DNA of 64,000 bases from Candidatus Hecatella orcuttiae (GTDB lineage: Archaea > Thermoproteota > Bathyarchaeia > Hecatellales > Hecatellaceae): contig MTLY02000001.1 of NCBI GenBank assembly GCA_002011035.2, positions 192,001-256,000 of the forward strand, in the 5' to 3' direction. A model generated the notes under the pieces. It was not told where the DNA came from, made no database searches, and was given only the letters and a program-made list of their open reading frames with translations. Below are positions 32,588 to 47,514 of this stretch, piece after piece. A program made the translations under genes and the position numbers. Every line of letters starts with the position of its first letter. Position 1 is the first letter of the stretch.

Positions 32588-32712
32588 TGGCGCCGCCGGA
32601 CGGACTCGAACCGTCGACCAGCGGGTTCCTGTCAGCAGTTAACAGCTTCAGCCCTTTTTCAGCCCTGAGGGGCCTTGAGGTCCGCTGCTCCACCACGCTG
32701 AGCTACGGCGGC
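32588..32712 (-). tRNA. tRNA-Asn(GTT) with two introns: 35 nt at 30/31 (32681-32647) and 13 nt at 37/38 (32639-32627); CCA encoded
   Basis: Spliced sequence: GCCGCCG TA GCTC AGCGTGGTG GAGC A GCGGG CT GTT AA CCCGC TGGTC GACGG TTCGAGT CCGTC CGGCGGC G CCA. Both introns form BHB motifs. Confidence 0.95.
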
Positions 32713-44079: not shown

Positions 44080-46518
44080 ATGCGGGAGACAAAGGGAACA
44101 GAAGCGAAGTTCAAACCCAAGATCGCTGAAAAAAGATGGTCTCCCAGCTTAGAAAACGAGATTTTTGAGGAATGGGAGAAGACAGGCGTTTACAGGTTTA
44201 ACCCTGATTCTGGAAAGCCGATATACTCCATAGACACACCGCCTCCCTATGCCTCAGGCCGTTGGCATGTGGGCGGAGCCACCCACTACGCTCAGATAGA
44301 CATGGTCGCCCGCTACCGGCGGATGAGGGGCTTTGAGGTGAACTTCCCCTTCGGCATCGACCGGAATGGGCTGCCGGTGGAGGTGGAGGTGGAAAAGAAA
44401 CACGGCATAGCCGCTCACCAAGTGCCCCGAGAAGAATTCATCAACCTCTGCAAAGAATTCCTCGACCAAGTTGAGGAAGCCATTCTCGCCGCGGCTAAAA
44501 GGCTGGGAATGAGCTGCAACTTCAAGCAGCTCTACCGAACCGACAGCCCTGAATACCGGAGGATTACGCAGGAAACCTTCATCGAACTCTGGAAGAAGGG
44601 CTTGGTCTACACGGACGACAGGCCTACCAACTGGTGTCCCGTCTGCAGGACCACCATAGCCGACGCTGAGCTGGAATACGCGGAGCGGGACGCCTACCTC
44701 TGCTACATCAGGTTCGGTGTTGAGGGAGACAGCCGAGGAGCCGTAATAGCCACCACCCGGCCTGAGCTTCTATGCACCTGCGCCGCCGTCATCCGTCACC
44801 CCGAAGACGAGCGGCATCAGCACCTGGAGGGAAAAAAAGCTGTCACCCCCATCTTCAGCCGCAAAGTCCCCATCCTAGCCGACCCTTCAGCCAAACCTGA
44901 ATTCGGCACAGGCCTCGCCATGATATGCTCCTACGGAGACTACACCGACATCCGGCTTTTCAGGGAACTAGGCCTCAAGGCTGTGTTGGCCATAGACAGG
45001 GAGGGAAGAATGAACGAGGCCGCCGGCCCCTACCGAGGTTTAACCGTGGAGGAGGCCAGAGAAAGGATCATCGACAACTTGGAAAAAGCCGGCTTCATGG
45101 TTAGGAAGGAGAAAATCCGCCACAGCACCCCCGTGTGCTGGAGGTCTAAAAACCCTGTGGAGTTCATCTCCATGAGCGAGTACTACCTTAAACAGCTTCC
45201 CTTCCAAGAGGCAGTGAGAAGAATGTTTCAAGAAATGGAGTTCTATCCCCCTGAAGCCAGACAGCTTCCCCTAAACTGGGTGGACTCCCTCAACGTCGAC
45301 TGGCCTATCTCGCGGCGGAGATTCTACGGAACCGAGCTCCCCCTCTGGTACTGTCGAAAATGCGGCAAACCCTACCTGCCTCCGCCCGGGCGGTATTACC
45401 AACCGTGGAAGGAGCCTCCGCCCACACCCCAATGCTCCTGCGGCTCCACCGATTTTGAGGGGGAAACCAGAACCTTCGACACTTGGATGGACTCCAGCAT
45501 CACTCAACTTTACATTCTAGGCTACCGCAGAGATGAAAACCTCTTCAAGAAGGCTTATCCCTGCACTCTGAGACCTCAGGGAGCCGACATCGTCCGCACA
45601 TGGCTTTACTACTCCACCCTCAGAACCTACCAGTTGCTCTCCGACAAAGCCTTCCGGCAGGTGAGAATCTCAGGCATGGGCCTCGACGAGGCAGGGGAAG
45701 CCATGCACAAGTCCAAGGGGAACGTCATATGGCCTGAGCCCATCTTGGAAAAACTCGGCGCCGACGCCTTCAGGCTTTGGGGAGCCTCTGAAGCCCGGCT
45801 GGGCTCCGACTACCGGTTCAACTGGAGCAGACTGGAGGGAGCCGCTAGGTTCATCACCAAGCTTTGGAACATCTCCCGTTTCATCTCCTCCTTCCCGGTG
45901 GAAAAAGGGCCTGTGGAGCTTCAGCCTTTAGACGGCATGATCCTCGCGGAGCTGAACAAGGTTGTCGAAGAATGTGTGAAGGGCTACGAAGCCATGGACT
46001 TCTTCATCCCAGCTCAAGCCATCCGAAGCTTTTTCTGGAACATCTTCGCCGACCATTATTTGGAAGCCGTTAAGGCGAGGGCCTACAACTTCCAAAACCT
46101 TTTCCAAGATGACGCCCAAAGATCAGCTTGGAAGACGCTTCACCTCTGCCTGAGCACGGTCCTAAAACTTGCGGCACCCATCTGCCCCCATGTGACGGAG
46201 GCCGTTTGGCGGAGGATTTACTCTGAGACCTCCATCCATTTGGAGGAGTTTCCTCAACCTCAAAAAGAGTGGGAAAGCAGCCTCGGAGAGCTTCTCAAAC
46301 CTTTCACAGCCTTCAACTCCGCGGTGTGGAAGTTCAAAAAAGCCAAAAACATGGCTTTAAACTCCGAACTTCAAACAGTCTACACGCTTCAACCTCTCCA
46401 GCCTCTGGCAGCAGACTTGAAGGCGATGCACAGAATTGAGACCCTAGTCTTCGAGCAGCCTCCGTCGGGGGAGAAGGGCTTGGAAAAAATCGAAGAGTTG
46501 TACATTCGTCCCAAGTGA
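44080..46518 (+). CDS. valS: Valine--tRNA ligase
   Basis: IDTPPP, HVGG, ATTRPE, GTG..MIC, DTWMDSS, RPQG.DI.RTW, MHKSKGN. Confidence 0.95.
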   Translation: MRETKGTEAKFKPKIAEKRWSPSLENEIFEEWEKTGVYRFNPDSGKPIYSIDTPPPYASGRWHVGGATHYAQIDMVARYRRMRGFEVNFPFGIDRNGLPVEVEVEKKHGIAAHQVPREEFINLCKEFLDQVEEAILAAAKRLGMSCNFKQLYRTDSPEYRRITQETFIELWKKGLVYTDDRPTNWCPVCRTTIADAELEYAERDAYLCYIRFGVEGDSRGAVIATTRPELLCTCAAVIRHPEDERHQHLEGKKAVTPIFSRKVPILADPSAKPEFGTGLAMICSYGDYTDIRLFRELGLKAVLAIDREGRMNEAAGPYRGLTVEEARERIIDNLEKAGFMVRKEKIRHSTPVCWRSKNPVEFISMSEYYLKQLPFQEAVRRMFQEMEFYPPEARQLPLNWVDSLNVDWPISRRRFYGTELPLWYCRKCGKPYLPPPGRYYQPWKEPPPTPQCSCGSTDFEGETRTFDTWMDSSITQLYILGYRRDENLFKKAYPCTLRPQGADIVRTWLYYSTLRTYQLLSDKAFRQVRISGMGLDEAGEAMHKSKGNVIWPEPILEKLGADAFRLWGASEARLGSDYRFNWSRLEGAARFITKLWNISRFISSFPVEKGPVELQPLDGMILAELNKVVEECVKGYEAMDFFIPAQAIRSFFWNIFADHYLEAVKARAYNFQNLFQDDAQRSAWKTLHLCLSTVLKLAAPICPHVTEAVWRRIYSETSIHLEEFPQPQKEWESSLGELLKPFTAFNSAVWKFKKAKNMALNSELQTVYTLQPLQPLAADLKAMHRIETLVFEQPPSGEKGLEKIEELYIRPK

Positions 46519-46636: not shown

Positions 46637-46804
46637 ATGAAGTCGGAAAAACCCTGCAAGTACAGAGGGGAAATTAAACTCGGAAACCAGAAGTGGAACT
46701 GGTGTTTCTTCTACAACTCCAAGATCGGCGACGTATCCTGTGAAAAATGCGAAATCCCAGGGTTAAACAGTCAAACCAAAATGAAAAACACGCCCATAGT
46801 GTAG
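46637..46804 (+). CDS. Small Cys-rich hypothetical protein
   Basis: 55 aa with four Cys (C..C..CEKC); TTTAAATA box at about 46594. Confidence 0.55.
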   Translation: MKSEKPCKYRGEIKLGNQKWNWCFFYNSKIGDVSCEKCEIPGLNSQTKMKNTPIV

Positions 46805-46854
46805 GCTGAGGGTTAATGGCCTCGGCTTTTGAGCGGAGTCTTAAGATGAATAGT

Positions 46855-46994
46855 TGGTAGCCCGGGGGAGATTTTCGGGCAGCCACCGCGGCTGCGTTTC
46901 GAACTCCCGTCAGCAGGTCTCCCCTTGATGTTGACAAGCCAGAGCCTGCCATGCCTAGCCGGCCTAATCCCTTTGACCGCTACACCACCGGGCT
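46855..46994 (-). tRNA. tRNA-Gln(CTG) with three introns: 18 nt at 21/22, 20 nt at 37/38, 26 nt at 59/60; CCA encoded
   Basis: Removing 46972-46955, 46938-46919 and 46897-46872 gives a 76-nt tRNA: AGCCCGG TG GTGT AGCGGTCAA GCAT G GCAGG CT CTG GA CCTGC TGAC GGGAG TTCGAAT CTCCC CCGGGCT A CCA. A1-U72 is typical of archaeal tRNA-Gln. Confidence 0.95.
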
Positions 46995-47090
46995 ACGCCT
47001 TGGAGAGTGATTAATCTATTTCCACCCTTATTTTTTATCTATTTCTCAAGCCGCTTTTAAGGAATATGCAACTTCCTGTATCGAACTCTA

Positions 47091-47366
47091 TTATACGACG
47101 CCGGAGATTTCCAAGCCTCTTTTTCTCCGGGCAGCCGCCGGTCTTTGTTCGCATGTTTTCCTACGGTATTCGGCTAGGAGTACTTGAAACAGCAGCTTCA
47201 GCTCGTAGGGGCTATCATGGTAGGCGTCTTCCAGCCGTTGTTTTAATTTCTCATGTCTTTTCACGTTGAATTTTTCCATGAGCTTTCGTTCAAACCATTC
47301 CTGAAACCCAGCGTCCTCAGGCAGCTTTAACCCCATCAACACTGCCAAGGCGATAAAACACGGCAT
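47091..47366 (-). CDS. Hypothetical protein
   Basis: Helical, charged ORF filling the intergenic space; start uncertain. Confidence 0.55.
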   Translation of the reverse strand: MPCFIALAVLMGLKLPEDAGFQEWFERKLMEKFNVKRHEKLKQRLEDAYHDSPYELKLLFQVLLAEYRRKTCEQRPAAARRKRGLEISGVV

Positions 47367-47514
47367 AATCCACCATCTTCAAGCCATATCCATAAGACAC
47401 ACGTAGCTAACCTTAACGTGCAAACTGTCGAGATAAAAACGTTTACAAGCCGGACCCATCCCGGGATGCTATCTCAAAAACACCGCCTTTGAAGGCTTCC
47501 GCAACCGCTTCAAC

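Follow-up and report, generated by a model that had tools for sequence, protein, structure and literature searches.

A predicted three-intron tRNA-Gln(CUG) gene in Candidatus Hecatella orcuttiae, a member of the Bathyarchaeia

Can a 140-nt locus that standard tRNA finders pass over encode a complete tRNA interrupted in three of its arms? The question was raised by a stretch of DNA from Candidatus Hecatella orcuttiae (64,000 nt analysed in full, here called the window), in which the original prediction placed a hidden tRNA-Gln(CTG) gene with introns at 21/22, 37/38 and 59/60. The boundaries proposed, positions 46855 to 46994, proved exact. The strand, which had been left unstated, is minus, and the gene reads from 46994 to 46855. 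Cloverleaf, orthologues, paralogue and motif register all agree with that assignment and, judged from its sequence, the locus is very probably a functional three-intron tRNA-Gln(CUG) gene.

ARAGORN returned 0 genes on the unspliced 140 nt and made no call at the locus in runs on the window or on the whole genome. The Rfam tRNA model gave no match there, even at E ≤ 10 on a 451-nt slice. The statement that default annotation often misses such genes thus holds here for ARAGORN and for Rfam/Infernal. Several calls that ARAGORN made elsewhere were rejected: a "Gln(ttg)" at C2:434252-435900, whose "intron" is 1,558 nt long, a "Gln(ttg)" at C3:589001-589087, which is without Gln exon sequence, and, with the intron option, a "tRNA-Gly(tcc)" with a 77-nt intron (window 45091-45259, plus strand), which lies inside an 812-aa class I aminoacyl-tRNA synthetase ORF (44080-46518).

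The gene (46855..46994) consists of four exons and three introns, all on the minus strand, and encodes its CCA. Exon 1 (46973..46994, 22 nt) comprises the 5' strand of the acceptor stem starting with A1, U8, the 5' strand of the D-stem and the D-loop up to position 21. It is followed by an 18-nt intron at 21/22, the junction of D-loop and D-stem (46955..46972), with a relaxed bulge-helix-bulge motif. Exon 2 (46939..46954, 16 nt) carries the 3' strand of the D-stem, position 26, the 5' strand of the anticodon stem and loop positions 32-37 with the anticodon CTG. It ends at a 20-nt intron in the canonical position 37/38 (46919..46938). Exon 3 (46898..46918, 21 nt) holds position 38, the 3' strand of the anticodon stem, a 4-nt variable loop, the 5' strand of the T-stem and T-loop positions 54-59, and is followed by a 26-nt intron at 59/60 in the T-loop (46872..46897). 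Exon 4 (46855..46871, 17 nt) completes the gene with position 60, the 3' strands of the T-stem and of the acceptor stem (U72), the discriminator A73 and CCA (46857-46855).

When the four exons were joined by script, ARAGORN called a 76-nt tRNA-Gln(ctg) with a regular cloverleaf on the joined sequence, bearing out the well-formed 76-nt product that had been predicted. The spliced tRNA has a 7-nt acceptor strand, a 4-nt D-stem strand, a 9-nt D-loop, a 5-bp anticodon stem and a 5-nt T-stem strand; the anticodon loop reads CUCUGG followed by A38, and the T-loop UUCGAA followed by U60. Its hallmarks are A1-U72, U8, G18G19, the T-loop TTCGAAT, A73 and CCA. The features expected of an archaeal tRNA-Gln, an anticodon CUG in a 7-nt loop with U33 together with A1-U72 and A73, are all present. 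A 92-aa ORF (window 46674-46952, minus strand) shares its strand and part of its sequence with the tRNA gene, and a gene finder could call this ORF instead of the tRNA.

The 22-mer of exon 1 recurs unchanged in at least 119 public archaeal records and in the genome's own Gln(UUG) paralogue. A scan of public records with this 5' exon yielded at least 119 loci; 112 of the genes could be parsed, and the spliced form was accepted as Gln for 110. That all 110 accepted genes share the features named above is by construction, because the search pattern and the regular expression demanded them.

Among the relatives, the intronless Gln(CTG) genes L011 and L023, from two genomes (G009, G005) of a sister genus, share 72 of 73 positions with the spliced product, the exception being position 26; each scores 61.6 bits in Rfam. 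Genome G001, from another genus within the family, has a Gln(CTG) gene of 138 nt whose inserts lie at the identical three sites and measure 19, 25 and 21 nt. Its spliced form is called Gln(ctg) by ARAGORN and is 70/73 identical to the product of the window. That the layout is kept in G001 despite the divergence of its intron sequences is a sign of selection on splicing. The Gln(CTG) genes of G002 and G007 have the 37/38 intron only, and other relatives show compensatory changes at the anticodon-stem pairs 28-42 and 29-41.

The paralogue of the same genome, tRNA-Gln(UUG) (anticodon TTG; G000:C2:61193-61311, plus strand), has two introns, at 37/38 (21 nt) and 59/60 (25 nt), in the same register as in Gln(CUG), and none at 21/22. 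Its D-arm is uninterrupted and otherwise identical to that of Gln(CUG) after removal of the 18-nt insert, and its exons match the Gln(TTG) template from G002 at 71 of 73 positions. The 59/60 introns of the two Gln genes of the window's genome share their 3' ends only. The corresponding introns of Gln(CTG) and Gln(TTG) in G001 agree at 21/21 nt (L002, 1501-1641; L020, 1486-1600), and so do the adjoining parts of the exons, which begin in the variable loop and run over the T arm and the acceptor strand as far as CCA. A pattern of this kind hints at gene conversion between these two isoacceptor genes or at transfer of the intron from one to the other.

The splicing endonuclease makes its cut behind the second of the three nucleotides in each bulge, a rule that here has the support of the register test. 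In that test, an exon was required to end in 4 nt of helix strand followed by 2 nt, and an intron in 4 nt that pair with this strand, again followed by 2 nt. All three introns show a 4-bp central helix with two 3-nt bulges at the exon-intron boundaries, the D-arm intron in a relaxed form, and the four motifs that had been named for them are all present at the introns concerned. At 21/22 the central helix is GGUC/GGCU, with bulges AA|A and AG|G. At 37/38 it is CUCU/GGGG, with bulges GG|C and AG|A and an inner helix UUG/CAA. At 59/60 it is UUCG/CGAA, with bulges AA|A and AA|U and an inner 6-bp hairpin GCAGCC/GGCUGC. In each case 4/4 pairs form at the exact register.

The same register was scored over the distinct Gln genes in L001-L143 with at least 62/73 identity to the spliced product (identical sequences collapsed, distant genes dropped). 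The full 4/4 central helix formed in 34 of 50 introns at the exact register; with the 3' strand displaced by 3-8 nt, the count fell to 2-8 of 50. All seven genes with a 59/60 intron are in full register, with intron-side strands CGAA, CGGA or CGAG. Position and 4/4 register are likewise kept in 5/5 genes with a 21/22 intron, whose intron-side strands are GGCU, GACU, GAUU, GACU and GAUC. As read from these sequences, the exon-side helix strand is fixed by tRNA function, and the intron-side strand varies while complementarity is kept.

At its predicted energy minimum (-64.7 kcal/mol, z -2.5), the 140-nt precursor is a cloverleaf of which three arms are lengthened, and the three motifs are therefore mutually independent. 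Only for the T-arm intron is the bulge-helix-bulge conformer itself the minimum-energy fold (-19.4 kcal/mol, z -2.7), with a C-C mismatch beside the 5' bulge. In the minimum-energy fold of the anticodon arm the register is slipped by 2 nt, GGAG pairing instead of GGGG. For the D-arm, competing helices UAGC/GCUA and GGUC/GGCC are more stable in the nearest-neighbour model.

The D-arm motif is the point at which another reading can enter, namely that two of the three inserts are spliced and the 18-nt D-arm insert is either retained as an enlarged D-arm or removed at a base-shifted junction. The motif is relaxed because its central helix contains two G-U pairs, its inner helix is 2 bp long and its 3' bulge faces a 4-nt gap. 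Moreover, the bulge-helix-bulge conformer is not its minimum-energy fold, and a displacement by +1 would give a Watson-Crick 13-22 pair. Retention or shift would, however, leave unexplained why all five genes with a 21/22 insert keep the 4/4 helix in the same register with differing intron-side strands, and why removal at exactly 21/22 gives back the D-arm that the paralogue and all intronless orthologues have. The competing helix, compared by eye, has no counterpart in the G001 sequence, yet G001 keeps the bulge-helix-bulge register, which argues that the D-arm motif is real but relaxed. The relaxed 21/22 motif of the original prediction is upheld in this sense, with a register conserved in G001 and a D-arm fold that competes. 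Retention or a shifted junction is accordingly given very little credence, and removal of all three introns at the register described is preferred.

How unusual three introns are for this genome was seen in a census of its tRNA genes. Templates were taken from the intron-poor relative G002, in which 40 of 42 Rfam tRNA matches were used (two low-scoring ones were omitted) and ARAGORN accepted 40/40. Spliced template alignments were made with a gap-open of -14 and a score of at least 70, and introns were counted if they were 8 nt or longer. The census gave 39 tRNA loci, with ARAGORN accepting the spliced product of 38. Fifteen loci have no intron, 11 have one, 7 have two and 6 have three, which amounts to 43 introns in 39 loci (about 1.1 per tRNA gene) and to 24/39 intron-bearing loci. 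For Gln(CTG), a mis-splicing of the G002 template by ARAGORN shifted the 37/38 boundary of the template run by one base, and the parse that agrees with the register was used instead.

Besides Gln(CTG), three-intron genes were found for Phe(GAA) (G000:C2:322050-322200, minus), Tyr(GTA) (G000:C3:228347-228548, minus), Ser(GCT) (G000:C3:311255-311404, plus), Ser(TGA) (G000:C3:346661-346826, plus) and Lys(TTT) (G000:C3:675973-676123, plus), each of these five accepted by ARAGORN after template-guided splicing, so that at least 6 of the 39 loci carry three introns. Within the window lie Asn(GTT), whose anticodon arm holds two introns, one of 35 and one of 13 nt (32591-32712, minus), and Ile(GAT), with one 18-nt intron (981-1073, plus). 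A one-intron Ala(TGC) gene and a two-intron Ser(CGA) gene were added in a second census round.

Two further loci were noted in the same genome. A 161-nt Rfam tRNA match (33.9 bits) at G000:C1:85094-85254, minus strand, is by eye a candidate Lys(CTT) gene with three inserts (D-loop, near 31/32 and variable loop); its alignment to the Lys(UUU) template was mis-parsed and was discarded. A possible tRNA pseudogene, 85 nt long, lies at G000:C2:33478-33562, plus strand: 74/85 of its positions agree with tRNA-Leu(GAG) at C2:29218-29302, ARAGORN rejects it, and its Rfam score is 22 bits.

The Rfam tRNA model finds 28 matches above cut-off in this genome, 27 in G001 (E ≤ 0.001) and 42 in G002. The heavy intron invasion that had been proposed for the lineage is supported for the genus of the window (43 introns in 39 loci of the window's genome, six genes with three) and for that of G001, but not for the family as a whole. 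Similarity between introns was sought by comparing the 43 census introns all against all and the Gln introns against the genome (blastn-short). It gave a 9-nt match (E 0.048) and chance-level matches of 12-16 nt, a weak test with introns this short, and recent intron transposition appears mildly disfavoured.

Is the gene needed? A second Gln(CTG) gene, for which the original prediction had suggested a check, was not found by DNA search, Rfam, ARAGORN or template search in an assembly rated 97% complete. The DNA search of the genome returned 2 Gln-like loci, and none of 36 Rfam matches at E ≤ 1 was Gln. In 667 ORFs of at least 300 codons, CAG makes up 4,427 of 7,638 Gln codons (58%). As far as the assembly goes, the locus is the genome's sole tRNA-Gln(CUG) gene, with the anticodon that matches the commoner Gln codon, CAG.

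A decaying pseudogene, in which a tRNA-Gln gene was disabled by three insertions and tRNA-Gln(UUG) reads CAG by wobble, would fit the failure of standard finders to recognise the locus and the existence of a Gln(UUG) gene in the genome. Decay would nevertheless have had to leave the exons undamaged and 72/73 identical to intronless orthologues, to place all three insertions at the exact bulge-helix-bulge register, and to arrive at the identical layout in another genus despite diverged intron sequences. [quoted passage not shown] A pseudogene is therefore regarded as very improbable, on a par with retention of the D-arm insert, and the reading as a functional three-intron gene is retained.

That the cloverleaf arose by chance from three freely chosen deletions, which do offer many degrees of freedom, or that the locus is an assembly artefact, is scarcely credible: the deletions are not free choices because independent orthologues and the paralogue fix them, and an identical sequence is present in contigs of other runs. 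On the sequences compared, recovery of the cloverleaf together with the identity to orthologues is far beyond chance. The gene is fully covered without a difference in contigs from two other sequencing runs (X6 record 2 and X7 record 6), which come from two studies not flagged as possible sources of the assembly, and the exact match shows that the locus is not an assembly artefact. No intron-less allele of the Gln(CTG) locus was seen in the covered parts of four DNA contig sets. A joint 46919->46973 in X8 that encloses 15 different letters, together with a comparable X6 record, was considered as a variant and rejected, the unlike flanks marking both as Gln genes of other organisms.

Upstream of the gene, an A/T-rich TATA-like box (47025..47040, minus strand) lies at -46 to -31 from the mature 5' end and may be its promoter. 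The Gln(UUG) paralogue has a near-identical A-rich box at -42 to -27, and when 38 tRNA genes of the genome are taken together, A+T content is highest from -46 to -28 and reaches 0.87 at -36. Box and peak together lend slight support to transcription. A sigma-70 promoter scan gave no match; the model is not applicable to archaea. A terminator-like hairpin (46806-46792) was noted 49 nt beyond CCA. The neighbours of the tRNA gene encode a class I aminoacyl-tRNA synthetase, CitG and shikimate-pathway enzymes, and the 520-nt spacer between the tRNA and CitG (46995-47514) contains short ORFs only (67 and 91 aa). No integrase or other mobile-element gene was found among the neighbours. [quoted passage not shown]

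Enzymes suited to the removal of such introns are encoded in the genome. It has two tRNA-intron endonuclease genes (PF01974/PF02778), for proteins of 184 and 189 aa. The 184-aa protein matches catalytic subunits of crenarchaeal two-subunit enzymes (3p1z_B, E 1.2e-46; 2cv8_A; 2zyz_B). Its alignment runs without gaps through the crenarchaea-specific loop and has K and K opposite K44 and R46 of the Aeropyrum pernix enzyme. In Aeropyrum pernix, according to the accessible text of PMC3241643, this loop lets the endonuclease cut non-canonical sites including a D-loop intron, and K44 is needed. For the 189-aa paralogue the nearest matches are 5x89_A and 1a79_A; by eye, it is missing the His at the catalytic position, which fits a structural subunit. 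RtcB ligase is encoded by one gene (E 1.6e-177). At the gene level, then, the host would possess both an endonuclease for non-canonical sites and the RtcB ligase.

From the anatomy, motif register, conservation and enzyme genes observed, we infer transcription, cleavage and ligation as follows. Transcription would yield a pre-tRNA of about 140 nt, in which one short intron extends each of three arms (D, anticodon and T). Every exon-intron pair would fold as a bulge-helix-bulge, with a 4-bp helix and two 3-nt bulges, relaxed in the D-arm. The archaeal splicing endonuclease, which appears to be of the two-subunit (alpha-beta)2 type with a broad-substrate loop, would cut on both sides after the second bulge nucleotide. 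RtcB would join the four exons to the 76-nt tRNA and would probably also circularise the introns. The explanation as a whole, a sole tRNA-Gln(CUG) gene whose three bulge-helix-bulge introns are removed by the endonuclease and whose exons are joined by RtcB, is held with high confidence.

The scan of public records also placed the gene in a wider series. Among the matches listed, Gln(CTG) genes have no intron in at least 72 cases, one in at least 2, two in at least 1, three in at least 3 and four in at least 3. The four-intron genes, which belong to related metagenome-assembled genomes, are L058 (21/22, 29/30, 37/38 and 59/60; 301-463 of the locus, minus strand) and L066 (21/22, 29/30, 37/38 and 53/54), both from records labelled Bathyarchaeia, and L092 (29/30, 37/38, 53/54 and 59/60), from a record labelled Nitrososphaeria. 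ARAGORN calls the spliced product of each Gln(ctg). Where the alignment was resolved, which in L092 applies to 3/4 introns, their introns have 3 or 4 of the 4 central-helix pairs. Two Gln(TTG) loci with apparently three and four introns (L031, L049) were set aside as alignment artefacts or doubtful.

Up to three introns per archaeal tRNA gene have been reported (Sugahara et al. 2008, as cited in the accessible text of PMC4033280 and PMC8450103), and the four-intron Gln(CTG) genes exceed by one the maximum of three stated in those parts of the archaeal tRNA-intron reviews that were available. The papers listed in a literature search for four-intron archaeal tRNA genes dealt with Cyanidioschyzon merolae and with phage group II introns. 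The 21/22 and 59/60 introns recur in more than one family and are therefore either old or mobile. We lean, with considerable reserve, towards the view that tRNA introns have a second hot spot of proliferation in a part of the Bathyarchaeia, apart from the Thermoproteales, with tRNA-Gln(CUG) as the extreme case.

Genes of this kind matter for annotation. Finders that are unable to remove several introns leave the genome without a tRNA for its commoner Gln codon. ARAGORN and Rfam miss or mis-call many other tRNAs here, which can bias both the completeness estimated for Bathyarchaeia genomes and what is inferred about their codon usage. The link of a loop-bearing two-subunit endonuclease with intron-rich tRNA genes is extended past the Thermoproteales, and one orthologous tRNA with 0, 1, 3 and 4 introns across relatives offers a natural series for the study of intron gain and loss.

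The closest known systems are the tRNA gene sets of the Thermoproteales. In the available parts of the reviews, multi-intron tRNA genes are described as prominent in this order and tied to (alpha-beta)2 and epsilon2 endonucleases. PMC8450103, as far as its accessible text goes, gives an average of 0.84 introns per gene for Thermoproteales and 71 introns in 46 genes for Pyrobaculum calidifontis. Going by these accessible descriptions, the present gene resembles the sets of Pyrobaculum and Thermofilum in having up to three short introns, canonical and non-canonical sites, and strict and relaxed motifs. It also shares with the Thermoproteales an (alpha-beta)2-type endonuclease with the crenarchaea-specific loop (predicted here) and the property of being missed by ordinary finders. 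It differs in its host, which belongs to the class Bathyarchaeia and not to the order Thermoproteales, and so lies outside the Thermoproteales multi-intron set by lineage. It differs further in that no intron-intron similarity was seen here, whereas intron transposition families are reported there (PMC4033280, accessible text). No description of multi-intron tRNA genes in Bathyarchaeia was found in the literature searched, which consisted of main texts outside subscription journals, judged by title and the opening of the abstract. The gene thus has a known but rare layout, in a lineage where such genes appear undescribed in that literature.

Two other systems invite comparison. One eukaryotic nuclear tRNA gene has one intron in each of three arms, as here, but the make-up of the endonuclease differs and the descent is unrelated. 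The split and permuted archaeal tRNAs of Nanoarchaeum equitans, Caldivirga and Thermofilum use the same bulge-helix-bulge and endonuclease pathway, according to the accessible text of PMC4033280. Unlike those, the exons of the present gene are colinear within one 140-nt unit, and its maturation would need neither trans-splicing nor permutation.
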